The translations under genes were made by a program, and so were the position numbers. From contig JAIPJL010000004.1 in NCBI GenBank assembly GCA_021734165.1, positions 951 through 64,950 of the forward strand: a DNA stretch of 64,000 bases, in the 5' to 3' direction. The DNA is from a bacterium. Lineage in GTDB: Bacteria; Electryoneota; AABM5-125-24; Hatepunaeales; Hatepunaeaceae. Numbering within the stretch: the stretch's first letter is position 1; each line of letters begins with the position of its first letter. A model generated the notes under the pieces. That model was given only the letters and a program-made list of their open reading frames with translations. It had not been told where the DNA came from and did not search any database. Shown here piece after piece: positions 6,966-34,957 of the stretch.

Positions 6966-7972
6966 AAAGAATACATTCAACACCAACGGAGATAAGTCAT
7001 CCGGTTGAAGCAGAACCGATTATTGATGCAGATATTTGGGAAAATTTCTGGGAAAATGCTGTCAACGGAACGCTGTTTCATTCGCTGAAATTCATGTCTT
7101 ACCATCCTGCAGACAGGTTCAAACAGCATCACCTTGGCTTTAAACGCAAAGGCAACCTTGTGGGTATCTTTCTTAGCGCTGAGCGGGATGAAGATGGTGT
7201 TAAGACCTGGGTTTCACATCCGGGAGCATCTTATGGGGGTCCGGCATGGTCTAAAGGACTCCGCTATCACCATCTCGAAAGCCTTATTACAGCGCTTGTT
7301 GAGTATGCAAAGACACAGAACTTCGGTCGGATAAGAATGACGCCTCCACCGGCAATATATAATCTAATTCCGGAAGAAACGCTCCGATTCGCTCTGATGA
7401 GACACGGCTTTAAAATTGTACGCAGTGAATTAACCCAGGCAGTTAAACTCGACTTTGATGAAGATCAACTTATCGATCAAATGGTTAACAAAACACGTAC
7501 AGCTTATAGAAAGGCTGTAAAGGAAGGACTCCAGTTCAGGATTATCGAAAAACCTACTCAAGCTGAGTTTGATCGTTTCAACGAAATACTTGTTGAAAAC
7601 AGGGCTGGATTAGGCGTCGTGCCTGCTCATAGTCGTGAGGAAATAGAAAAACTTCACAACCTTGTTCCAGATAAACTAATGATGGCAGTTATAGAGCATC
7701 ATGGCAGGATGGTTTCCGTAATCTGGAACTTTATATGCAACAAAAGTACTGTGCTTGAATTTTACATGGCGCATATTGCTGATGCGCAAATCTTAAGACC
7801 GGTTACATTTCTGACTTATCATACGCTGCTCTGGGCGAAACGTAAGGGGTTTAAATGGTTAGATTTTGGCATTTCTTCGATTGACGGTGAGCCAACCTGG
7901 GGACTAATGAAATACAAAGAGAACTTCCAGGCGAAACATTTTATGAGATTAACGTATCAGCTTGATTTGTGA
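6962..7972 (+). CDS. GNAT/FemAB-like acyltransferase
   Basis: SHPGASYGG, tandem GNAT layout, WLDFGISS...GLMKYKENF; TTG start overlapping upstream TGA. Confidence 0.75.
   Translation: MKRIHSTPTEISHPVEAEPIIDADIWENFWENAVNGTLFHSLKFMSYHPADRFKQHHLGFKRKGNLVGIFLSAERDEDGVKTWVSHPGASYGGPAWSKGLRYHHLESLITALVEYAKTQNFGRIRMTPPPAIYNLIPEETLRFALMRHGFKIVRSELTQAVKLDFDEDQLIDQMVNKTRTAYRKAVKEGLQFRIIEKPTQAEFDRFNEILVENRAGLGVVPAHSREEIEKLHNLVPDKLMMAVIEHHGRMVSVIWNFICNKSTVLEFYMAHIADAQILRPVTFLTYHTLLWAKRKGFKWLDFGISSIDGEPTWGLMKYKENFQAKHFMRLTYQLDL
7910..7972 (+). repeat. 63-bp direct repeat, copy 1 (3' end of GNAT gene)
   Basis: 49/63 nt identical to 8708-8770 by manual alignment; first 20 nt identical. Confidence 0.9.
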
Positions 7973-7991
7973 TTCGTAATTACTCTGATAA

Positions 7992-8705
7992 ATGAAATCA
8001 CACATTAAAAGAGTACTTCCTAGATTTCTGCATCATTTTTATAACCGAATCGTTTCCCGTCGCAAGATCGCCGACCGGCTCGGTTCATGGTTTGAACTCG
8101 ATTGGAAAAAGAAAGCTGAGAACGCTGATACTTCAACCTGGGTTGATGTTTATGACAGATATTGGGAACACTGGTCGAAGCAGGATTTGTCAGAAAAGGA
8201 TTTAGAAAAATTTTTGCAGAGCATTACAAAGGGAAGTTCAGTGCTTGACGCCGGTTGCGGTGACGGATACCTGTTAGATAGTCTATCTAATAAGTGCAGT
8301 ATGATGACGGGAGTCGATATTTCCAGCGCTGCCTTGCAAAAGGCTCGCAAGCGGTTTGGAGATAACATTCTACTTATTCAATCTTTTATTGAGAACCTGC
8401 CGTTTGCCGATAATTCATTCGATACAGTGGTATCAGCGCATACACTCGAACATGTCAAGGACATAGATAAAGCTGTTTCCGAACTGAAACGGGTTGCAGT
8501 AAAGAGTCTTGTGATACTTGTACCAAGACAGGAATATCTGCCATATACTGAGGATTATCATTTACAATTTTTTCCGACTGAACAGGATCTATTGGACAAA
8601 GTTGGTATCAAGGGAGCGCGGTGCGAACGATACGTAACGGGTAATGAAAAGACCAATTATCAAGGAGATGTATTGTTATTGGCGGTGAGCCTACTTGGTG
8701 ATTAA
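7992..8705 (+). CDS. Class I SAM-dependent methyltransferase
   Basis: VLDAGCGDG motif I, GVDIS motif II, LPFADNSFDTVVSAHTLEHV. Confidence 0.9.
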   Translation: MKSHIKRVLPRFLHHFYNRIVSRRKIADRLGSWFELDWKKKAENADTSTWVDVYDRYWEHWSKQDLSEKDLEKFLQSITKGSSVLDAGCGDGYLLDSLSNKCSMMTGVDISSAALQKARKRFGDNILLIQSFIENLPFADNSFDTVVSAHTLEHVKDIDKAVSELKRVAVKSLVILVPRQEYLPYTEDYHLQFFPTEQDLLDKVGIKGARCERYVTGNEKTNYQGDVLLLAVSLLGD

Positions 8706-14289: not shown

Positions 14290-16602
14290 GTGATAAAGCA
14301 TGAAATGAACCTGAGATTTATACATATATTTTGTACACTGTTGTTCCTTACAACAGTTTCACTTTCCGAAACCCGCGTTTCCGGTAATACCTCCGGCGTT
14401 TGGGATGTTGACGGCTCACCCTATATTGTGACTGGAGACATTACAATCTCCAGCGATAATAGACTGACAATTGAGAGTGGCGTGGAAGTTCTGTTCGATG
14501 GAGATTACAGAATTACCGTCCAGGGTGGAATTACCGCCGAAGGCTCCGAAAATTCACCAATCCTATTCAGCAGAAACGGTCGTAATATCACCTGGAACAG
14601 CATCTACATCCGCAACGCAAGACAGGATAATTCCCTTGCATACTGCATCATTGAATACTCCCAAAACGATAACGGCGGAGGATTATACTGTAGATACAGC
14701 GCCATCACCATATCCAATTGCATCTTCAGACATAATTCCTGCTCAGATAATGGCGGCGCTGCATACTTTGAAGACAGCGATCCGATTGTAAATAACTGTC
14801 AATTCTATGAAAACCAGGCTGGATTAAACGGGGGTGGCGTAACCTTTTACAATTCTGACGGTGAGTTTACACGTAATATCGTAACTAACAACCAGGCAGT
14901 GCGTTATTCGGCAGGAGGCGTGTTTATATCTCAATCATCTTCACCGCTTATTTCCGGAAATGAAATCACCATAAACACATCTTCCACCGAGTGGGGGTCC
15001 GGTCTCTATGTAGATTATTACAGCAATCCTGAAGTCATCCACAATCTTATCAGCATGAATTCTCAAGGGGGAGTCTATCTTGGACTTAATTGCAGAGTAA
15101 ATGTATTTCTGAATAATACCGTTGCTGATAATGGCGGTAGATGCGGAGTTCTGCTCTACTCAAATTGTACACTAACTGCCGTCAATTGCATTATTTACGG
15201 CAATTCAACCACTTCAACGTGGATTATCGGCTCAACCATGAACGCCAGATATTGTGACATTGAAAATCTTGGCGACGATGTGCGTGCCGGACAAGGAGTT
15301 ATTGAAGACAATCCACTTTTCCTTGATGCAGACAACGGTGATTTCCATTTAACCGAAGACTCACCATGTATCAACACCGGAGATCCTGAATCTGAGCCTG
15401 ATGCGGATGAGACCAGAGCTGATATGGGATGCTTTGCATATCAACATCAGGTAATTGAACGAAACATCTCACTTCGCAGCGGATGGAACATGATCTCTTT
15501 CAATGTCGAGCCACTAATCGTAGATATTCAGGAGCTGATGGTATCACTGACCGAAGGCGACGATCCCACTCTGATAATCCTGAAAGATGAATATGCAAGG
15601 TTTTATCTGCCAAGTGAAGGATTCAATAACATCCCTCAGTGGGTGTATAGTCAAGGTTACAAGATAAAACTGTCGCGGGATGCGGAACTCAACGTTGAAG
15701 GTCGTTTCATTGAACCTGAGCGCAGCATCGACGTATTTGAAGGCTGGCAGTTCGTTGCCTATTATCCGAATTGGGAGATCGACGCAGTCGAAGGTCTCAC
15801 GTCTATTGCCGGTAACATGTTGCTCGCAAAAGACGAGAGCGGTGACTTCTACGCCCCAAGCCGTCAATTCAGCAATATGCAGCCTCTGCGACCGGGAAAA
15901 GCATATACTATCGGGATGCTTGATGACGATGTGCTAACCTATCCGGTTGAAGGTGTTCGGGATAATAGAAGAATTTCTGCAACATCCAACTATTTATCTC
16001 ATACATATTATCCTGACCAAACCGACAATAACATGAGTTTGCTGATTTCAGGAACCGGGCTTCAAACGGGTGATGAAATTGCGGCATTCAACAGCGAGGA
16101 TATTGTTGTCGGATCAGGAATAGTCGGAGATGATGGACGATGTGGAATAGCACTTTGGGGAGTGTCATCAATATTAGCAAACGAGACAGGACTTCAAGCG
16201 GGTGGAATTCCGCGTTTTTTACTTGTCAGAGATGGTGTGGAAATGGATGTTGAATGTTTAAATAAAGGCGAATCGATAACTTATAGAATCAACGGTTTTG
16301 CTGAAGCTCAGTTAATCCGTTCAGAAAGTCATACCTTGCAGACGTTCGGATTAGATGAACCGCATCCCAATCCATTCAACAATCAGAGCGGGATCTCATT
16401 CTTTGTGGATCGACCATGTGAAGTCAGCCTTAATCTCTACGATCTTAACGGGCGGCAAGTGAAAACCCTGATCAAAGGAAATCTCGCAGCAGGTAAATAT
16501 ATACGGCTGTTAAATGCGGATGGACTTTCCAGCGGTGTATATATTCTGAAGTTAAAGGCAGGTGATGCAAGCTCTGTGAAAAAGATTGTACTGCTATGGT
16601 AG
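14290..16602 (+). CDS. Secreted beta-helix protein with T9SS CTD (C-terminal half paralogous to 11245-13662)
   Basis: Signal peptide; SGVWDVDGSPYIVTGD; repeated N.GGG..; DFHL...SPCINTGDP; GWNMISFNVEP block; HPNPFN tail. Confidence 0.8.
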   Translation: MIKHEMNLRFIHIFCTLLFLTTVSLSETRVSGNTSGVWDVDGSPYIVTGDITISSDNRLTIESGVEVLFDGDYRITVQGGITAEGSENSPILFSRNGRNITWNSIYIRNARQDNSLAYCIIEYSQNDNGGGLYCRYSAITISNCIFRHNSCSDNGGAAYFEDSDPIVNNCQFYENQAGLNGGGVTFYNSDGEFTRNIVTNNQAVRYSAGGVFISQSSSPLISGNEITINTSSTEWGSGLYVDYYSNPEVIHNLISMNSQGGVYLGLNCRVNVFLNNTVADNGGRCGVLLYSNCTLTAVNCIIYGNSTTSTWIIGSTMNARYCDIENLGDDVRAGQGVIEDNPLFLDADNGDFHLTEDSPCINTGDPESEPDADETRADMGCFAYQHQVIERNISLRSGWNMISFNVEPLIVDIQELMVSLTEGDDPTLIILKDEYARFYLPSEGFNNIPQWVYSQGYKIKLSRDAELNVEGRFIEPERSIDVFEGWQFVAYYPNWEIDAVEGLTSIAGNMLLAKDESGDFYAPSRQFSNMQPLRPGKAYTIGMLDDDVLTYPVEGVRDNRRISATSNYLSHTYYPDQTDNNMSLLISGTGLQTGDEIAAFNSEDIVVGSGIVGDDGRCGIALWGVSSILANETGLQAGGIPRFLLVRDGVEMDVECLNKGESITYRINGFAEAQLIRSESHTLQTFGLDEPHPNPFNNQSGISFFVDRPCEVSLNLYDLNGRQVKTLIKGNLAAGKYIRLLNADGLSSGVYILKLKAGDASSVKKIVLLW

Positions 16603-19422: not shown

Positions 19423-21138
19423 TTACTTGATCAACATCATTTTTCTAACTTGTGATTTGTTCAAACTTTCAAGTTTAACGAGGTATAATCCCGAAGGCAG
19501 ATTGTTAGCTTTTAGGTTAACTGTGTGGATTCCAGCTTGTCTATTTTCATCGACCAGCATTTCAACTTCGCGTCCGGTTATGTCGTAAAGTGTAAGTTTA
19601 ACTTGTGATGTAACCGGCAGTGAATAGCTGATGGTAGTTGTGGAGTTAAAGGGATTGGGATAGATACCGGCTATGCTGAATTTGACTGGTGTTAAGTCAC
19701 TATCATCTCTGACACTAACAAGTGAATCCGAGGAACCTGTTATTGGAATCTCGATAATTTCCTCATCCGGATCGTCGGATTCAATTCTTAGTGTTGCTTC
19801 ATATGTCGCTAACTCATGAGGAGCAAATAGTATCCAGCTTTCATGTTCGGATTCAGCTTCTATTTCACATCCTCCGCCACCCTGGCAGATCGTGAAAGGC
19901 GAATCATCCGGTATAATCGATTGATCTGATATTTGAAGTTCCGTTCTGCCAATATTTAGAATGGTTATCATCAGGCTGTCGCTTTGTCCGGATTCCACCC
20001 ATCCAAAATCCATTTCCACGGGATTCGCATCAATATCACGCTGGTGAAAATAGTACGCTCCCATATCAGTTATAGTACCATCAGGATCATCCTCTATCGC
20101 CGCATCACCTGCGTCGATACAGGGACTTTCTTCGGTCAGATTGTAATCTTCTCTTCCGGCATTCACAAACAAAGGATCATCATCTATGTTACCGTCACCC
20201 CAGACAATTTCACCATTATCGTTTCCTCTAATGTCGTCTCTGCCGTCCTTAACATCACAAAACTCGAAAGTAAGACGATGACCGTTGGCATCGCCAAGAG
20301 CATTTATCTCGTGGGGATCGTTATCCCAAAAGATACAGTTTTTTATAATCACATCTGAGTCATCCATACAGCATATCCCACCGCCATCTCCCCAGGTTGC
20401 CCGGTTATCAGCGATTGTGCAGTTTAGAAATGTTGGATGAGAATCCCATAACGACATTCCGGCGCCATAAGCCGCATTATTACCGCTGAATGTACAGCGT
20501 ATAAATGTCGGACCTCCATTATTGTCGAGATACAATCCGCCTCCTGAATTGGTGGCGTCATTTTCAATGATTTCTGTATCCTCGAAAATAGGACAACAGT
20601 TATCACGGATAGACAAACCTCCGCCAAAAGATCCACTATTTTCAGTTATCTTGCATTTCCGGATCATAGGAGTTGTCCTGGATCCCCACATGAACATTCC
20701 GCCACCGCCATTTTCCGTCGAGTTTTCAAGCATGATGCAGTTTTCAATGGTCGGGCTTGCATATTGAATAAACACAGCCCCTCCGACATACCAGTCACTA
20801 CCTCCCATATTAACGCAATTACCGCTACCATAAGTAAGCAGAAATCCGCTTAAAACTGCATTCCGGCTCTCACCATTGGTAAAAAGGACAACCGAGCCAT
20901 TATGATCTCCGTCGATAAGAGTCATATATGGATTATCCGGACTGCCGATAACGACAATATCTTTCCCGCTGAAATCAAGATTCTCAATATACTCTCCAGA
21001 TTCAACGAGAATTGTATCCCCATTCGCAGATTCATCAATAGCGCCTTGAATGGTCTCGAAATCGTCAGGGACATTAATTATTTCTGCTTGCGCAATCCCT
21101 GACAGGATTAACAGGATAAGCAGGATTCTTCTAATCAT
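19423..21138 (-). CDS. Secreted beta-helix plus Ig-like protein with T9SS CTD
   Basis: N-terminus nearly identical to the 19405 gene; GGG repeats; SPCIDAGD; SDDPDEE Ig unit; YPNPFN tail. Confidence 0.8.
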   Translation of the reverse strand: MIRRILLILLILSGIAQAEIINVPDDFETIQGAIDESANGDTILVESGEYIENLDFSGKDIVVIGSPDNPYMTLIDGDHNGSVVLFTNGESRNAVLSGFLLTYGSGNCVNMGGSDWYVGGAVFIQYASPTIENCIMLENSTENGGGGMFMWGSRTTPMIRKCKITENSGSFGGGLSIRDNCCPIFEDTEIIENDATNSGGGLYLDNNGGPTFIRCTFSGNNAAYGAGMSLWDSHPTFLNCTIADNRATWGDGGGICCMDDSDVIIKNCIFWDNDPHEINALGDANGHRLTFEFCDVKDGRDDIRGNDNGEIVWGDGNIDDDPLFVNAGREDYNLTEESPCIDAGDAAIEDDPDGTITDMGAYYFHQRDIDANPVEMDFGWVESGQSDSLMITILNIGRTELQISDQSIIPDDSPFTICQGGGGCEIEAESEHESWILFAPHELATYEATLRIESDDPDEEIIEIPITGSSDSLVSVRDDSDLTPVKFSIAGIYPNPFNSTTTISYSLPVTSQVKLTLYDITGREVEMLVDENRQAGIHTVNLKANNLPSGLYLVKLESLNKSQVRKMMLIK

Positions 21139-23976: not shown

Positions 23977-24058
23977 AACATATATAATCTAAAACCAATA
24001 TTTGCAAAGATCAACAGAAAACACACTATCTTTAGAATATTTCATTAAAAAACATGCC

Positions 24059-25312
24059 ATGAAAAGCAAGTTTAACATAGTAGTCAAATCCTGGGATGAA
24101 TGCGTTTCATTTATAGTTGATTCCGACCTTGACATTAGCTACCAATCCGGTGTGGTGCCTTGGGGGATAGCATTTGCTGGGATGACTCCTGATATTAAGG
24201 CTGAACGTTGCCTGATTCCCATGTCAAGATCACCGCGCAAGCTGCCTGCCGAAGATTCCTGGCTGTCAGCAGTTCGTGATGCCGTCGGATACGCCGCCGA
24301 TAACGGTTGGACAGTCGTTTCAAGCTATGGTACAATCGGCTGGGAATACACGAGCTGGTATGCAGCGCGCCGTAATATCCCGCTCTGGATGGTTCTGCCC
24401 ACTAGATCATTGGAAGATTTCTCTGCCGAATGCGAAAGTCTGATAGACAGGTTTGCCTTGAATTTGCCTCTGACGACCTTTATAATGCCGCTAATTAATG
24501 GCAGATCACCAAAGAGCAATCTCCAGATCATGCGCGATGTACTGACAGCAATGATTTCTCGTCATCGATTGCCGATCTACGTTCGCCCTTCAGGCAACTG
24601 GGCGGGGATACTTAGGATTTCTAAAAATTTTGACGCCCGTTTCATCAGTTATCGCCCTAAAACATATATTGAAACATGGCGTAAGGATGATGATTGGATT
24701 CGGAATATCGCTGATCAGAATTGGGGTGATATGTTGATCCACTGGACAAAAGGAGCTTATGGACCCTGGACAGGCGAAGTAGAAGCGGATTATTTTGAAG
24801 CTATCACACTATCCGAGTTTGGCAATCCCCGTGATGGATTGGCGACGCTGGTATTTATTGCATTGTCAGGAATACTACGCGGCGCCGGCAGGATGATCCG
24901 CCAAGGTGAGCCGGTAATCTCTTTCTCCGCGTTAAAACCGTTAGAATTGTTGAACAAAATAGAATATAAATCGTATCTTAAAAGATGGAATTATGAGCCG
25001 TATGGAATTGCCGTTTCTGCTGAAGCGCTGAAAAGTCTTGGTGTGAAAAAGGTCATATATGGCAGTAAAGAGCTTTATGAACAATTAACTCCCGAACAAA
25101 GACCGTATTACCAATTTAAAGGCAGAAACGAAACGGAAAACGAAATTTTCACAGGCTGGGAATCTGAATCGGAATGGAGACTCGTCGGAGATCTGGACTT
25201 AACAAGTATTATGGAAGAAATAACACTAATCACACCCTTTGAACATGAGGCAGCAGCTTTACGGGAATCGACGCCCTATCATGTTTGCTCGCTGGAAAGA
25301 GGACCTGCTTGA
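24059..25312 (+). CDS. Hypothetical protein: Rossmann/SLOG-like N-terminus and ADP-ribosyltransferase-fold-like C-terminus
   Basis: 436-aa ORF (TTG 24002 or ATG 24059); C-terminal IHWT...SFS...PYGIAV...VIYG...ESEWR pattern; the coding call is firmer than the domain call. Confidence 0.6.
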   Translation: MKSKFNIVVKSWDECVSFIVDSDLDISYQSGVVPWGIAFAGMTPDIKAERCLIPMSRSPRKLPAEDSWLSAVRDAVGYAADNGWTVVSSYGTIGWEYTSWYAARRNIPLWMVLPTRSLEDFSAECESLIDRFALNLPLTTFIMPLINGRSPKSNLQIMRDVLTAMISRHRLPIYVRPSGNWAGILRISKNFDARFISYRPKTYIETWRKDDDWIRNIADQNWGDMLIHWTKGAYGPWTGEVEADYFEAITLSEFGNPRDGLATLVFIALSGILRGAGRMIRQGEPVISFSALKPLELLNKIEYKSYLKRWNYEPYGIAVSAEALKSLGVKKVIYGSKELYEQLTPEQRPYYQFKGRNETENEIFTGWESESEWRLVGDLDLTSIMEEITLITPFEHEAAALRESTPYHVCSLERGPA

Positions 25313-27309
25313 GTAATAAAACCACCAACAATACAACCTACTTACAAAACCTCATCGAGGGCATTAAACCTTACCGTAAAAAGTTAGCTCTTGGTTTCAT
25401 TGCTTCAGCGTTAATGAATGCTTTCGCAGTCATGAGTCCGATGTTGCTCAGATCAGGCGTTAATGCGTTGCAGGAAGGCGCTCCTGTCGGCTGGCTGTAC
25501 ACATTTTCTGGGTTGATTGTCCTGATTGCTGTCATCGGCGGTGTGTTCCGTTATCAGATGCGTATGATCATCATCGGAACATCGCGTTGGGCGGAGAGCG
25601 ATCTGCGCGAAAAGTACTTCGGACATCTGCTTGAGCTTGCTTCGTCATTCTTTGATCGCAATCTGACCGGTGATCTGATGGCGCGCGCTACTGACGATAT
25701 TGAGCGTATCCGTATGGTTTACGGACCGGTGTTGATGATGGTCATGGCTACCTCGCTGACGTTGATCTTTTCCGCAATCATGATGTTTATACTCGACGTC
25801 AAATTAGCAATACTGGTCATGTTTATGGCGCCATTAGTTGGCGCTGTTGTACTACTCGTTGCAAGCAAATTACATCGGGTAAACCTGTGTCAGCAGGAGG
25901 CTTATGGAAAACTCGAGTCAAATGTCCAAGAAAATCTCACCGGTATTCGCGTCGTAAAATCGTTTGTTCGAGAGGCTTACGAATCAAAGAAATTTACTGA
26001 AATCTGCCAGCTATATTTCAAACGCAGTATAGACGTTATAAAAATACAATCGATCTTCATGCCGGTCATAGGGCTGCTGATCGGGCTTGGAATTGCGCTG
26101 ATACTCTGGGTGGGTGGTAAAGACGTAGCAACCGGAGCTATTACGCTTGGAGATTTCATCGCTTTTACAAGTTACTTATCGCTTATGACTTGGCCCATGA
26201 TTTCCATAGGGTGGCTGACACATCTGTATCAGCGTGGATCGGCTTCCCATAGGAGATTGGAACAGATATTTGAGGTGAAGGAACAATTTGAGAAGGATAC
26301 CCCCCCCTTTGATTCCCCTCCAGAGCAGGGGGGGATGACTTCTGACTTTTATTCCAAGCCCGTAGGGCAGGAGGAGATTAATGGAAAACAAGGACTTGAG
26401 TGTCATGTGAGGACACATGACACCACAAGTCCATCAATAACATTCCGAAACATCCATTTCAGTTACAACGATGATTCACCTGAAGTTCTGAAAGGTATAA
26501 ATCTGGACATTCCTTCGGGCAGTAAACTGGCAATTGTTGGGAAAACGGGCTCAGGTAAAAGTACGCTACTTAGGCTATTATCCAGATTGTACGAGCCGCA
26601 AAGTGGTGAAATATTACTTAATGAGACCCCCCCTTTAATCACCCCCTACTCTGTAAGGGGGGAGGGGCAAGCTAATAATCCCTTACCAAGCGAGGAGGGA
26701 AAACAACGCTCATCATCCCCCCCTGCAGAGCAGGGAGAGATTAAAGGGGGGGGTATTTCATGGAAAAAGATTCCAATCCACCAACTCCGTCGTATGATCG
26801 GTTACGTTGAGCAGACTCCCTTCCTCTTCTCAACCTCAATCAGAGAAAACATAGCCTTCGGCGCAATGGAAGCTACAGACGAAGCGATTGCAACTGCTAC
26901 ACAAATAGCGAGTTTCGACAGAGATATTGCGGACTTACCTGACAAGTATGAAACCATTATCGGTGAACGTGGCGTCACGCTTTCCGGTGGTCAGCAGCAG
27001 CGGTTAACAATAGCAAGAGCCTTACTGACCGATACACAGATATTACTGCTTGACGATGCACTCAGCGCTGTCGATACAGGCACCGAAACCGGAATCATTA
27101 ATAATCTGACCACACAGACCAGTCAAAAAACGGTTCTTATCGTAACCCACAGACTTGCCGCGGCTGAAAGAGCCGACAAAATCGCAGTTCTCGATAATGG
27201 AATTATCGCTGAATATGGCAATCATCAGGAATTAATGGATTTAAACGGCTTATATGCTGCGATGTATCGTCGTCAAAGGTTGTCGGATGAACTCGGAGCA
27301 ATATCATGA
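25309..27309 (+). CDS. Heterodimeric ABC exporter subunit 1 (TMD+NBD) with two in-frame repeat insertions
   Basis: Six-TM domain, GKTGSGKS, LSGGQQQR, degenerate Walker B LLLDD; TTG 25309 follows GAGGA and overlaps upstream TGA. Confidence 0.92.
   Translation: MSNKTTNNTTYLQNLIEGIKPYRKKLALGFIASALMNAFAVMSPMLLRSGVNALQEGAPVGWLYTFSGLIVLIAVIGGVFRYQMRMIIIGTSRWAESDLREKYFGHLLELASSFFDRNLTGDLMARATDDIERIRMVYGPVLMMVMATSLTLIFSAIMMFILDVKLAILVMFMAPLVGAVVLLVASKLHRVNLCQQEAYGKLESNVQENLTGIRVVKSFVREAYESKKFTEICQLYFKRSIDVIKIQSIFMPVIGLLIGLGIALILWVGGKDVATGAITLGDFIAFTSYLSLMTWPMISIGWLTHLYQRGSASHRRLEQIFEVKEQFEKDTPPFDSPPEQGGMTSDFYSKPVGQEEINGKQGLECHVRTHDTTSPSITFRNIHFSYNDDSPEVLKGINLDIPSGSKLAIVGKTGSGKSTLLRLLSRLYEPQSGEILLNETPPLITPYSVRGEGQANNPLPSEEGKQRSSSPPAEQGEIKGGGISWKKIPIHQLRRMIGYVEQTPFLFSTSIRENIAFGAMEATDEAIATATQIASFDRDIADLPDKYETIIGERGVTLSGGQQQRLTIARALLTDTQILLLDDALSAVDTGTETGIINNLTTQTSQKTVLIVTHRLAAAERADKIAVLDNGIIAEYGNHQELMDLNGLYAAMYRRQRLSDELGAIS
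26299..26423. repeat. Composite palindromic elements in frame in the TMD-NBD linker
   Basis: A-C8-TTTGATTCCCCTCCAGAGCA-G7 (26299-26334) and GTGTCATGTG-agga-CACATGACAC (26400-26423). Confidence 0.75.
26626..26754. mobile_element. 129-bp MITE/REPIN-like element inserted in frame in the NBD
   Basis: Terminal inverted repeats ACCCCCCCTTTAATC / GATTAAAGGGGGGGGT; removal restores the 12-residue spacing seen in the partner NBD. Confidence 0.85.
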
Positions 27310-29102
27310 CGCCTCCTCCGGGACACAGGATCGGACCTGACGACAGCATCATGGGACAGGCTTATGACGCCCGTCTGATGAAACGTCTGCTCCGCTACAT
27401 GAAACCTTATAGTATTTATGTATTTGGCGCTGTAATATTACTTCTTGCCGCCACTTTTGCTGAACTCGCCGGGCCGTGGCTGGTTAAGATCGGAATTGAT
27501 GATTATATATCGGTTAAAAATATCACCGGACTCTGGAAAATAGTTCTTGCTTACATCGGTTTTCTGATAGCGATGTTTATCCTGCGCTATCTGCAGTTAT
27601 ATCTCACACAGTGGATCGGACAAAAAGTCATCCTCGATATGCGCATTCAGCTTTTCAACCACCTGCAGCGCATGGATTTGAAGTTCATTGATTCTCGTCC
27701 GGTCGGCTGGATGATGACCCGCGTTACAAATGATATTCAGACCTTAAATGAGATGTTTAGTTCGGGTGTTGTTTCAATTTTCGGAGATTTATTCGCTCTG
27801 ATTGGAATCGTCGTTGTTTTGCTGGTGTTAAATGTAAAACTCGCGCTGGTGACGTTCACTGTAGTCCCATTGATCTTCTGGATGGTTTTCACCTTCCGTA
27901 AAAAGGTACGTGTGACCTTCCGGGAAATAAGGGAGACACTTGCTAAATTGAACGGCTTCATGCAGGAGCATATCGCCGGAGTTCGTACCGTGCAGTTGTT
28001 TGTGATGAAATCCCGGACTATGGAACGGTTTCAGGAGCGCAATATCGCTATGCGTAATGCCTGGATAAAAGCTATCCGCTATTTTGCCTTGTTCTTTCCT
28101 GGTGTTCAGTTTGTATCAGCTCTTGCGACGGCTTTGATACTGTTGGTTGGAGGATTACTAATTATTGATGATGCGCTGACTTGGGGAGCGCTGGTGGCAT
28201 TCCTCCAATATGCCGAACGTTTCTTTCATCCGATCAGGGACTTAAGCGAGCGTTACAACACCATGCAGGCGGCTATGGCAGCGGCGGAGAGAGTGTTCTG
28301 GCTGCTCGATACGGAACCGGAGATCGATGATCCTGCTAATCCCGTGAAAATTGAGAATATTGCCGGAAAAGTGGAGTTCAGGAACGTTGATTTTGAGTAT
28401 AATACTGGCGAATCTGTACTGAAGGATGTATCTTTTAAGATTGAGCCGGGACAGACTGTTGCGGTTGTTGGCGCAACCGGAGCGGGTAAAACCACACTTG
28501 TCAGTCTGCTACAAAGGTTCTGGGATGTCAAGTCCGGCGCCATACTTATTGATGATAAAGATATACATGAATATAAAATTGATGATTTGAGACGTGTTTT
28601 CGGCGTTGTGCAGCAGGATGTTTTTCTTTTCAGCGGTTCGATTGCCGAAAATGTCACGCTTGGTGATGATGAACGCTGTGATGATATACTTAGAAATGCA
28701 TTAATCGAAGCTAATGCCATCGACTTCGTGGAAGCAATGCCTGAGGGAGTCGATGAGCTTGTTGGCGAACGAGGCGCCAGGATTTCAGTCGGTCAAAAGC
28801 AGCTTCTCGCCATAGCAAGGGCAATTGCCGTTGATCCTCCGGTGCTGCTGCTCGATGAAGCCACCGCCGCCATAGACACCGAAACCGAACGCCGCATTCA
28901 GAAAGCGTTGGAACGGTTGATGAAGGATCGCACGACGCTGGTTGTTGCGCATCGCTTGTCAACCATCAGACAGGCTGACAGCATTGTGGTTATGCACAAG
29001 GGTAGAGTCCGCGAGATCGGCACACATGAAGAATTACTGCAAAAGGATGGTATATACGCCAGACTGCATAAGCTGCAATATGCGGAAGTTATTGAGACAT
29101 AA
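27306..29102 (+). CDS. Heterodimeric ABC exporter subunit 2 (TMD+NBD)
   Basis: GATGAGKT, degenerate signature ISVGQKQL, consensus LLLDEAT, AHRL; ATGA overlap. Confidence 0.93.
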   Translation: MTPPPGHRIGPDDSIMGQAYDARLMKRLLRYMKPYSIYVFGAVILLLAATFAELAGPWLVKIGIDDYISVKNITGLWKIVLAYIGFLIAMFILRYLQLYLTQWIGQKVILDMRIQLFNHLQRMDLKFIDSRPVGWMMTRVTNDIQTLNEMFSSGVVSIFGDLFALIGIVVVLLVLNVKLALVTFTVVPLIFWMVFTFRKKVRVTFREIRETLAKLNGFMQEHIAGVRTVQLFVMKSRTMERFQERNIAMRNAWIKAIRYFALFFPGVQFVSALATALILLVGGLLIIDDALTWGALVAFLQYAERFFHPIRDLSERYNTMQAAMAAAERVFWLLDTEPEIDDPANPVKIENIAGKVEFRNVDFEYNTGESVLKDVSFKIEPGQTVAVVGATGAGKTTLVSLLQRFWDVKSGAILIDDKDIHEYKIDDLRRVFGVVQQDVFLFSGSIAENVTLGDDERCDDILRNALIEANAIDFVEAMPEGVDELVGERGARISVGQKQLLAIARAIAVDPPVLLLDEATAAIDTETERRIQKALERLMKDRTTLVVAHRLSTIRQADSIVVMHKGRVREIGTHEELLQKDGIYARLHKLQYAEVIET

Positions 29103-33243: not shown

Positions 33244-34957
33244 AAAGTATATCCTCGTAATACTTACAACTATCTTCAAGTCCGCCTTGTCTGGAATGGA
33301 TCAACCACAATTTTCGGTGTTCTTCGATAATCTGTTTGAGTTGCTTTATTAATATTAATTGCTTCTTCCTGCCAAGTTTGTCATCTGATAGTCTGTATAT
33401 AGAGCGATCAATAGCAAACATCGCAACATCAAGCGTATGCGAAAGCTCGTCGGTTAGTTGTCGATATAGTTTTTTCGGCAGGTATTCACGCCCTTCGGAT
33501 AACATTTCCTTAACTCTAATCCAGTCATCAGGATTATCAATGTATCCCTTTTTATAAAGCGGTGTTTGCAGGTCGTTAAATATACAGCTTGCATTCTTAA
33601 TTCCGGTTTTCTTCCTAAGTCCAAGATCGACATTTCCAAGTACATCAAGCCAGTTTGCAATTTCTAACGATACGTCGTTGAATGCAAATAACGACGACGC
33701 CTGGCTGTCAAATCTATCCACAGAATCCGCATTCCAGGCAGCGTTAGCCGCTTCGGCAAGCGCATGCAAAGCAATCGGCGATTGTTGTCTATGACCCAGA
33801 TCGCCCCAGTCGGTAATCAGGAATCCGGAAGCTCCGTATTTCACGCCGACTTTTACGGCGTTTGCCAGATTTGTTTTACGTTCGAAAGTCCGTCCTGTTA
33901 TACTGCGCCATGAGCTTGTTCCGGGACAAACCCAGTATTCAAAATCGGCGTCTTTCAATTTAGAACACCAACTATCAAATGGTGAATCCGGCTCATATCC
34001 CCAGATCAACACTATGGCGTCCTTAGGCAGCATCGCTAAAGCTTCAGGCGATTTCAGCGCCATATCAGCCCAGAACATGCTGCGAAACTTATGTTTTGAG
34101 GCTATGTTAATAACCTGCCTGACAAAATCAGCATAGACTTTAGCATAGCCCTGTTTTTCAACCGCTTCACGACTTCGTCCCTGACCTACGTCGAAGGTCT
34201 CATCACAGCCGATGTTGACAAGACCACTGCTGAAGTTCGGCAGAAGCTGACCCAGCAGATCAGCAATCAATGCTATCGAACGCTCATCAGTCGGGCAGAG
34301 GCTGAAACCGCCTGAACGTTTGGTATTGAGGAATTTCCATTCTCCGGTTGTTTCGGCAAGGTGCTGGTATTGAGAGTGTTTCAGCCAGCGTTCCATGTGT
34401 CCGAAGCAGTTCTGGTTGGCGGCAAGTGTTATTCCCTGCTCCAGGCAGCGTTCGTCAAGTTCTTTAATTTCATCCGCTGTAAGAGGCGAAGTATCCTTCC
34501 AGACGACTTCGTGTCCTTTATAAGCAAAAGTGTGCTCGGTGTAAAGCTGCAAATGGTTAATCTTCCATGAACCCAGCAGGTCAACAAACCGGAGTAGTTC
34601 ATCCTGTTTTGGAATCCTGTCACGGGAGATATCAAGCATCACACCGCGCACCGGGAATGACGGCTCGTCTTCGATGAGCATACAGGGGAGCGCAGTTCCG
34701 AACTGCCGTTTAAGCTGCTTAAGAGTCCGGAGTCCGTGACAAACGCCGCTTTCAGACACAGCTTCGATTATGACAGGATGTGGACTTTGCTTATCGGGAT
34801 GTTTGACGATTAGCTTATAGCTCTCAGAACGGATACTACCTCCCTGCTCTGCAGGGGAGGAATTAAAGGGGGGAGCGTTCCCGATATTAACCACTCCTCC
34901 GGTAAAATCAATGCGTCTCGGTTCAGGGAGCAGTATGGGTTTTAAATTATCAATCAT
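33224..34957 (-). CDS. Glycoside hydrolase family 20 beta-N-acetylhexosaminidase
   Basis: RGVMLDISR, HLQLYTEH, FGHM, NIGCDE, ITDWGD; overlaps the anmK start. Confidence 0.85.
   Translation of the reverse strand: MIDNLKPILLPEPRRIDFTGGVVNIGNAPPFNSSPAEQGGSIRSESYKLIVKHPDKQSPHPVIIEAVSESGVCHGLRTLKQLKRQFGTALPCMLIEDEPSFPVRGVMLDISRDRIPKQDELLRFVDLLGSWKINHLQLYTEHTFAYKGHEVVWKDTSPLTADEIKELDERCLEQGITLAANQNCFGHMERWLKHSQYQHLAETTGEWKFLNTKRSGGFSLCPTDERSIALIADLLGQLLPNFSSGLVNIGCDETFDVGQGRSREAVEKQGYAKVYADFVRQVINIASKHKFRSMFWADMALKSPEALAMLPKDAIVLIWGYEPDSPFDSWCSKLKDADFEYWVCPGTSSWRSITGRTFERKTNLANAVKVGVKYGASGFLITDWGDLGHRQQSPIALHALAEAANAAWNADSVDRFDSQASSLFAFNDVSLEIANWLDVLGNVDLGLRKKTGIKNASCIFNDLQTPLYKKGYIDNPDDWIRVKEMLSEGREYLPKKLYRQLTDELSHTLDVAMFAIDRSIYRLSDDKLGRKKQLILIKQLKQIIEEHRKLWLIHSRQGGLEDSCKYYEDILYELEQQ
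34839..34873. repeat. C/G-tract element in frame near the GH20 N-terminus
   Basis: Coding strand CCCCCCTTTAATTCCTCCCCTGCAGAGCAGGGAGG (PPFNSSPAEQGG), same family as 26299-26334 (PPFDSPPEQGG). Confidence 0.8.

Follow-up and report, generated by a model that had tools for sequence, protein, structure and literature searches.

Two adjacent genes for an ABC exporter lie in the 64,000-nucleotide stretch of contig JAIPJL010000004.1 (assembly GCA_021734165.1, positions 951 to 64,950) that was analysed here, referred to below as the window. The first of the two carries a 129-bp in-frame insert composed of two inverted copies of a short dispersed repeat, which we call the C/G-run module. A further, lone module and a hairpin of a different repeat family are present in the same gene, in the linker between the transmembrane domain (TMD) and the nucleotide-binding domain (NBD). 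The features of the locus are as follows (E values for modules are from nhmmer):

25285..27309, + strand: ABC exporter half-transporter (TMD and NBD), host of the insert; open reading frame (ORF) with Pfam matches ABC_membrane (1.4e-50) and ABC_tran
26299..26335, + strand: second, lone module in the TMD-NBD linker of the same gene, translated TPPFDSPPEQGG (E = 7.8e-5)
26398..26426, + strand: hairpin of another repeat family (GTGTCA...TGACACCAC) in the linker, translated ECHVRTHDTT, with a perfect 10-bp stem
26621..26665, + strand: left C/G-run module, C7 TTTAATCA C5 TACTCTGTAA G6 AGGG (E = 1.9e-8)
26626..26754, no strand: in-frame insert of 129 bp (43 codons), made up of module (+), 52-nt spacer and module (-)
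26664..26715, no strand: spacer with a weak third hairpin-like piece (CCCTTACCAAGCGAGGAGGG), read from the sequence
26716..26758, - strand: right C/G-run module, inverted, C8 TTTAATC TCTCCC TGCTCTGCA G7 (E = 1.3e-4)
27306..29102, + strand: partner half-transporter (ORF, Pfam) with consensus Walker B LLLDEA, degenerate signature ISVGQ and canonical 12-residue spacing

Each of the two genes encodes an ABC_membrane and an ABC_tran domain, as in type IV (ABCB-like) heterodimeric exporters, and the nearest solved structures to the insert-bearing chain are ABCB1/ABCB4, BmrCD, TmrAB and TM287/288. An initial annotation, made from the sequence without database searches, had described all NBD motifs of this chain as intact. 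This holds for Walker A, the Q-loop, the signature and the H-loop, all of which are canonical, but not for Walker B, which reads LLLDDA with Asp replacing the Glu after the aspartate, likewise in all orthologues. The pair has one degenerate ATP site, with LLLDDA in one chain and ISVGQ in the partner, hence the insert-bearing chain is, judged by its motifs, the degenerate-site subunit of a heterodimeric type IV exporter. The degenerate-site NBD of such exporters is often regulatory. The ABC_tran match of the insert-bearing protein is broken into two separate stretches, and alignments to its homologues in the Protein Data Bank (PDB) stop at residue 445-447 and restart at 491-494, with residues 448-490 unaligned.

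The insert begins at the first base of codon 448 (26626), ends at the last base of codon 490 (26754) and is free of stops. Its length of exactly 43 codons and its ends on codon boundaries had been noted initially and agree with the coordinates and the frame, as does its location between Walker A and the Q-loop, where length is normally conserved. The inverted-repeat ends reported for it are present, save for one extra C/G in the run (C7 versus G8), and the arms are longer than first noted, spanning 37 nt on each side (26627-26663 and 26716-26752) with 86% complementarity. The RNA fold of the insert reaches -74.1 kcal/mol (z = -6.0), a stability equalled by none of 200 shuffles, and the DNA fold has a z-score of -5.0. 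Deletion of the insert gives GEILL-NEISWKKIPIHQ-LRR, with the 12-residue spacing that had been noted; the same spacing is found in the partner and in 12 of 22 aligned orthologues. The flanks (...AATGAG / ATTTCA...) contain no direct repeat, confirming the apparent lack of a target-site duplication.

The arms are not of the same module sub-family. The left one is of the major "TAC-TCT-GTA" sub-family and shares 91-93% identity with copies on contigs C132, C137 and C75 of the same genome, while the right one is of the TGC-TCT-GCA sub-family, with 94% identity to a copy at C119:34755-34789. What had been taken for terminal inverted repeats is thus a pair of modules in inverted orientation, rather than both ends of a single unit. 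No full-length second copy of the 52-nt spacer was found elsewhere in the genome; GCAAGCGAGGAGGG, similar to the hairpin-like piece of the spacer, trails a module on contig C6. The insert translates as TPPLITPYSVR...GEIKGGG, and GEGQANNPLPSEEGK is an example of a tryptic peptide encoded by it. Its boundaries are uncertain by a few bases, as the host sequence GATGA resembles the 5' extension of the module. The host-encoded motif GATGA(R) directly precedes both module sites in the ABC gene and is kept in module-free alleles and genomes, which hints at a target preference.

The module itself consists of C6-8, TTTAAT(T), C6-7, a variable stem of 2-3 bp with a 3-4 nt loop, and G6-8, amounting to ~35-46 nt, with moderately conserved extensions on the 5' side (tAAGGaAA or TGATGAAA) and the 3' side (A(N)GG). 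Stem bases co-vary between copies (TAC/GTA, TGC/GCA, CGC/GCG, TTC/GAA), therefore the small hairpin is the conserved feature. The source genome, a metagenome-assembled genome (MAG) of 3.4 Mb in 169 contigs, holds 40 copies by a strict pattern and 54 non-redundant copies by an nhmmer profile built from these 40 matches (E < 0.01); pattern-based counts over-count overlapping run lengths. Similar elements elsewhere in the genome, whose absence would have counted against the initial annotation, are present. All genomes compared here are likewise MAGs. Matches to the pattern are found in 54 of 79 genomes from the phylum Calditrichota and, at the level of the family, in 14 of 16, with up to ~200 per genome, and a reversed-pattern control is near zero across genomes. 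In the 79 genomes scanned, several other families of Calditrichota have no match to it, and the family apparently including Caldithrix lacks the module. A palindrome described from the Caldithrix abyssi genome (PMC5317091) is 18 nt long and has an unrelated motif. No Rfam family reached the gathering threshold anywhere in the window, and the only sub-threshold match on the insert, to a microRNA, was judged to be due to chance.

A large proportion of the copies lie within genes. Seventeen of the 54 lie 30 codons or more from both ends of an open frame that is 200 codons or longer; about ten long ORFs are involved, and all 17 copies are in frame. Pfam-confirmed hosts include ValS, where the copy sits inside the catalytic domain (tRNA-synt_1), DnaE (DNA polymerase III alpha), an oxidoreductase with Fer2_4 and Pyr_redox domains, a polysaccharide deacetylase, a GH20 glycosidase and the ABC gene. 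The GH20 copy is in the window:

34836..34873, - strand: in-frame module in a GH20 glycosidase gene (PPFNSSPAEQGG), nhmmer E = 7.4e-4, Pfam Glyco_hydro_20 and Glyco_hydro_20b

We found no gene in the genome that is clearly split by an out-of-frame module, and two candidates for such split genes turned out to be ordinary neighbouring genes. Three of the six module frames are open and give PPL/PPF...GG peptides. Read in these frames, C-runs would yield Pro-Pro and G-runs Gly-Gly, and a family with half of its frames open should be easily tolerated in proteins.

Other module doublets are also present in the genome. One of ~130 bp with the order (-)spacer(+) recurs at C119:31888-32018, C126:4382-4511, C121:295-403 and C157:9350-9478, and its frame (...TAGGD(R/K)GGVTLSD.KLTPAITSC.IR(K/N)PPL.SP...) is found in DnaE, the polysaccharide deacetylase and two other ORFs. 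A ~190-nt intergenic repeat with inverted ends (TTATAGCAGTGCTTGAAAGTATTTTCG / CGAAAATACTTTTGAGCCGTGTTATAA) has one C/G-run module at its centre (C13:~100-330, C46:~14300-14540, C80:~7750-8000, C156:~19650-19870, C75:56500-56950).

The same NBD loop was compared between orthologues using the alignment of 22 sequences, the DNA of the orthologues and a tree with variable parts masked. In six related sequences the loop is filled by inserts of 84-210 bp, one of these from a different repeat family, and in others it is empty. The loop was found in the following states:

12 sequences: canonical, empty
P0003/L048, P0004/L049 and P0008/L005: 5-6 unrelated extra residues
Window: related C/G-run insert, 129 bp
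P0002/L047: related insert, 168 bp
P0005/L050: ~67 extra residues (about 200 bp)
G011/L002: related insert, 90 bp
G007/L003: related insert, 84 bp
P0013/L052: related insert, 87 bp, decayed

Every loop variant (84, 87, 90, 129, 168 and about 200 bp) keeps the frame and has no stops. The G011 copy is a near-perfect palindrome (z = -8.2), and the G007 copy, which has no fold (z = 0.03), still adds 28 in-frame codons. In P0006 (L051:1690-1760) the same loop is occupied by 60 bp (20 codons) from another hairpin family (TTTGTCATTCCCGCGCAG...CGGGAATCCAGACAAGT); with the near-identical P0008/L005 it forms a clean filled/empty pair, without a target-site duplication. The second module of the ABC gene, in the linker (26299-26335), is present in the relatives L047 and L049 and absent from L048. 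The hairpin type found beside it (26398-26426) also flanks a RAYT-like gene on contig C26.

Left junctions differ among the three filled clades (GATGAGA/C7, GGGTG/C8 and CGCCGCG/C8), and each genome's loop insert matches its own dominant module sub-family, that of G011 being the GCAGAGC type. Clade-specific junctions together with genome-own sub-families therefore point to several independent hits on the loop or to a single old insertion with later homogenisation and remodelling, and the sequences would fit either history. The insert had been called recent, which is contradicted by its 168-bp homologue in L047, with the same junctions in a gene at a synonymous divergence of ~1.0 from that of the window, and by related loop inserts in other genera. 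Insertion at this loop is old or recurrent, not recent.

The initial annotation had also suggested looking for the empty allele in relatives. Twelve of the 22 orthologues are canonical, but the empty alleles of close relatives hold 5-6 other residues, and no clean-excision allele was found among them. The filled L047 and the empty L048 (SSQRDDS) are 90% identical overall and 96% identical in the sequence bordering the site on either side, and the empty alleles of L048 and L049 share SSQRD(D/NA)S, which is missing from filled alleles. This pattern suggests an old presence/absence polymorphism or short-tract exchange. Large-scale recombination was considered and rejected, as L048 is 96% like L047 up to the site, is not closer to L049 and shows no long recombinant tract.

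A protein of 410-440 aa without a Pfam match (window 24002-25312) is always encoded upstream of the orthologous ABC pairs (L002, L004, L005, L047-L049). The stop of its gene overlaps the start of the ABC exporter gene, and this conserved gene probably shares an operon with the exporter.

To what extent the insert reaches the protein can be judged from its evolution and its predicted structure. Between the window and L047, the core of the gene has a dN/dS of 0.06 at a dS of ~1.0 and the alignable part of the insert a dN/dS of 0.73, therefore the ABC gene is functional and the insert peptide is nearly unconstrained. In an AlphaFold model built from the 22-sequence alignment (mean pLDDT 72.8), strands 432-438 and 483-484 enclose residues 441-480, which are modelled as coil with pLDDT < 50. 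The other parts of the NBD score 75-90, and the repeat-laden linker (326-371) is as disordered as the loop. Modelling of the NBD, proposed in the initial annotation, is thus in keeping with its description of the insert as a tolerated surface loop. The insert lies where a beta-hairpin turns, between Walker A and the Q-loop, and would be transcribed and translated with the gene, giving the transporter a tolerated, disordered Pro/Gly-rich loop of 43 residues.

Taken together, we consider it probable (roughly 80%) that the 129 bp are non-autonomous repeat DNA, consisting of two inverted modules of two sub-families, which is transcribed and translated as a tolerated, disordered loop. Reading through into such a loop is preferred because of the frame conservation, the dN/dS values, the disorder and the gap in the PDB alignments, none of which is explained by removal of the insert. 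The initial label of "MITE/REPIN insertion" (MITE standing for miniature inverted-repeat transposable element) stands in so far as the insert belongs to a dispersed hairpin family with a REPIN-like architecture, but the module has no link to RAYT and no target-site duplication. Several observations weigh against this reading. Gain and loss of the insert do not fit the gene tree, as L048 shares SSQRD with L049 though it is closest to the filled L047. Translation of the insert is deduced from frame conservation only. Furthermore, the window and L047 differ at only ~5 of the 44 positions of the left module but at 55% of synonymous sites, therefore the insert DNA is not simply drifting, and a hairpin function or ongoing gene conversion may lie behind the conservation of the module. 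The peptide would accordingly evolve almost neutrally while the module core changes far less than neutral DNA, and we infer from these comparisons that a nucleotide-level force acts on the core, either structural constraint or homogenisation with other copies.

Four other explanations were weighed. The insert could be removed before the protein is made, by excision from DNA, by RNA processing at the hairpin or by ribosomal bypassing, leaving a mature NBD with the 12-residue spacing. Deletion of exactly 129 bp does restore the canonical spacing, the insert forms a very stable hairpin and close relatives show both presence and absence. However, all seven loop inserts, of varied length, are in frame and stop-free, which includes G007 with its 28 extra codons and no hairpin, and the maintenance of frame by 17 of 17 intragenic copies would be needless if they were excised. 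The arms come from different sub-families, making their long-range pairing incidental, the clean-excision allele is seen in no close relative, 43 residues is far below the size of an intein, and no Rfam family was matched at threshold. Removal through the paired ends, raised in the initial annotation as conceivable, is therefore very improbable, and translation as a tolerated surface loop is far more likely on the evidence of the sequences compared. An artefact of assembly, in which a repeat caused a chimeric join, might be considered in a MAG of 169 contigs, given that repeats break or mis-join assemblies. Both flanks are nevertheless contiguous, in-frame parts of one conserved gene, and independent assemblies of other samples have homologous inserts at the same codon, such that the chance of an artefact is practically negligible.

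The remaining two explanations accept the insert as genuine and give it a role. It may have been co-opted by the host, for instance as a loop for regulation or interaction, with the regulatory insertion of CFTR NBD1 as a parallel. The persistence of the insert in the clade of G011, G007 and P0013, even after decay of the palindrome, would agree with this, as would its location in a degenerate-site NBD. A dN/dS of 0.73 against 0.06 for the gene is difficult to reconcile with such a role, however, and so are the wide variation of the insert in length and sequence between lineages, the close relatives without it, the similar peptides that the same module yields in unrelated proteins and the disorder of the loop in the model; we regard co-option as improbable. 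Alternatively, the hairpin could act in cis, either as mRNA structure affecting pausing or stability or as a slippage switch in which the runs C7, G6, C7 and G8 toggle the exporter. Long C/G runs are classic slippage sites, the hairpin in G011 is near-perfect and the module core has changed much less than neutral sites. This conservation is however shared by intergenic copies and hence a property of the family, not of this gene, the hairpin has decayed in G007 and P0013 where the gene is kept, and identical modules are present in valS and dnaE, genes whose inactivation would kill the cell. A role in cis is thus unlikely as well.

Repeats of this architecture go with RAYT, a Y1 transposase, in REP/REPIN systems, and the genome does encode two RAYT-like Y1_Tnp genes of 161 and 163 aa (C26:12733-12891 and C127:4784-5059; loci L014 and L013), each with its own type of flanking REP (GTGTCAGGCG...CGCCTGACAC and CCGTCAGGTC...GACCTGACGG). 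None of 30 Y1_Tnp loci (89 kb, nine genomes) has a module within 1.5 kb, and counts of Y1_Tnp and modules are uncorrelated over 16 genomes (Spearman rho -0.04). GTAG occurs only inside the stem of one sub-family, with GCAG, GAAG or GCGG in others, hence there is no fixed GTAG/CGTC tag. A RAYT/Y1 transposase was rejected as the mover on these grounds, the RAYT-like genes of the genome itself being flanked by other REPs. No transposase lies between inverted modules in the genome, where the sole kb-scale pair (C13:189-2517) encloses ordinary genes.

A different gene is consistently found next to modules. DUF559 (PF04480), a family of Vsr-like PD-(D/E)xK nucleases and not a known transposase, is represented by a single gene in this genome (C81:740-1060), with one module in reverse orientation 45 nt upstream and another, forward, that begins at its last codons. 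Across many genera of Calditrichota, a module is found within 150 nt in 26 of 30 DUF559 loci, and on both sides in 15 of the 30. Upstream, the nearest module is in (-) orientation in 15 of 20 cases; downstream, it is in (+) orientation in 16 of 21. The usual layout is [hairpin-linker-G-run] gene [C-run-linker-hairpin]. Where a genome has multiple paralogues, each DUF559 gene has left and right hairpins that match one another yet are distinct from those of the others. Presence also coincides at the level of genomes, a strong DUF559 match being detected in 31 of 44 genomes with at least 10 modules versus 7 of 35 with fewer (79 genomes; odds ratio 9.5, Fisher p = 1.1e-5, ignoring phylogeny). In one family, the sole genome with modules is the sole genome with a strong DUF559 match.

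The dispersed copies resemble parts of these loci. In the (-)spacer(+) doublets of dnaE and others, the ends of the spacer are similar to the two ends of a DUF559 locus, as in internal-deletion derivatives, and the (+)(-) doublet of the ABC type is structured like a repeat just downstream of DUF559 in G001. Dispersed copies also retain a few bases of the DUF559 3' junction (AAGGTAA/AAGGAAA) before the C-run. Several further observations were made around DUF559 genes. The frame often enters the right module, with the C-terminal tail (e.g. ...KDTPPESPPAIAGGGN) and the stop encoded by the repeat (L053, L057, L083, L092, L094). Modules also form arrays by DUF559, with 13 alternating copies at a period of ~63 nt in L077 (G037:C13:13208-16516), and tandem units of 30-40 nt (AATTTTCTCCCCCCGCTTGCGGGACTGCCT) are found on both sides of DUF559 in L055 (G009:C13:1-860). 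Recent transposition of the whole unit was rejected, as the paralogues in G020, G071 and G069 share just 67-76% identity, over short stretches, and are therefore old rather than recent copies.

From its genomic context, the DUF559 nuclease gene is the best candidate for spreading the modules, though what the evidence shows is association and not activity. We see an even chance that the modules are the non-autonomous progeny of an undescribed selfish unit built on a DUF559 nuclease rather than a transposase, a counterpart of the REPIN-RAYT system. In this scheme the putative nuclease would nick or cut DNA at hairpins or at a short target (compare GATGA(R)), and repair would then copy modules to new places, the loops of essential proteins included.

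Our analysis of the module family is largely in agreement, as regards its behaviour, with the Rickettsia palindromic elements (RPE), in-frame repeats in unrelated genes (Ogata et al. 2000, as summarised in PMC10969869 and PMC1779305). RPE and Wolbachia palindromic elements are likewise dispersed palindromes found in frame in unrelated genes, housekeeping genes included. RPE are translated as extra peptides at positions that the fold can accommodate, which is also predicted for the module, and both lack a target-site duplication and a known transposase. They differ, however, in that RPE are 100-150 bp long and hosted by obligate intracellular alphaproteobacteria, whereas the module measures ~35-46 nt, occurs single, as a doublet or stacked, and is hosted by a free-living sediment phylum, Calditrichota. 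The C/G homopolymer runs of the module, which encode Pro/Gly-rich peptides, and its link to a DUF559 gene are further differences. The family can thus be termed RPE-like in behaviour, its size and composition being different.

The likeness to REP/REPIN-RAYT systems (PMC2817692, PMC3116915, PMC3733652) is one of architecture. Shared features include a short hairpin unit, inverted doublets with a spacer, sub-families, a low-copy gene bracketed by its repeats, and paralogues with matched, different hairpins. Nonetheless, the module is without the fixed GTAG/CGTC tag, the bracketed gene is a DUF559 nuclease and not a Y1 HUH transposase, and REPs are mostly extragenic, whereas ~30% of module copies are intragenic. 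Bacterial MITEs such as QMITE1 of Coxiella burnetii (PMC5896051) are also small, non-autonomous inverted-repeat elements occasionally found in intact ORFs, and intragenic ERIC, BOX and Anabaena MITEs have been reviewed (PMC10969869). Terminal inverted repeats are common to MITEs and the 129-bp insert, but the module family has no target-site duplication or cognate DDE-type insertion sequence, its construction is modular and its intragenic share is far higher. The bracketed gene shares its nuclease fold family with Vsr-like homing endonucleases (I-Bth0305I family; PMC2677866, PMC3239194), which illustrate that this fold can drive selfish DNA, and Vsr/DUF559 mismatch nickases are known (PMC12907096). 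Vsr-like nucleases differ in being located in introns or between split inteins, or in acting in very-short-patch repair. We found no published link between DUF559 or Vsr-like nucleases and dispersed repeats; DUF559 is mentioned in 25 papers, in none of them in that connection.

The in-frame insert is therefore a new instance of a known phenomenon, while the likely partner gene of the repeat family appears to be new. In-frame palindromic repeats are best known from Rickettsia and have been held a curiosity of reduced intracellular genomes, yet here they occur on a similar scale in a free-living phylum. Such inserts split domain matches and inflate protein lengths in MAGs, and should be flagged as repeats in annotation. 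With about a third of the copies intragenic, and one loop occupied by two repeat families, they amount to a natural map of permissive loops, and the modules supply conserved enzymes with Pro/Gly-rich loops particular to a lineage. What is chiefly new is that DUF559 genes are consistently bracketed by modules. If DUF559 does mobilise the modules, this would be a second, mechanistically different solution of the REP/RAYT type, and would provide a function for part of a very large, uncharacterised family of Vsr-like proteins.

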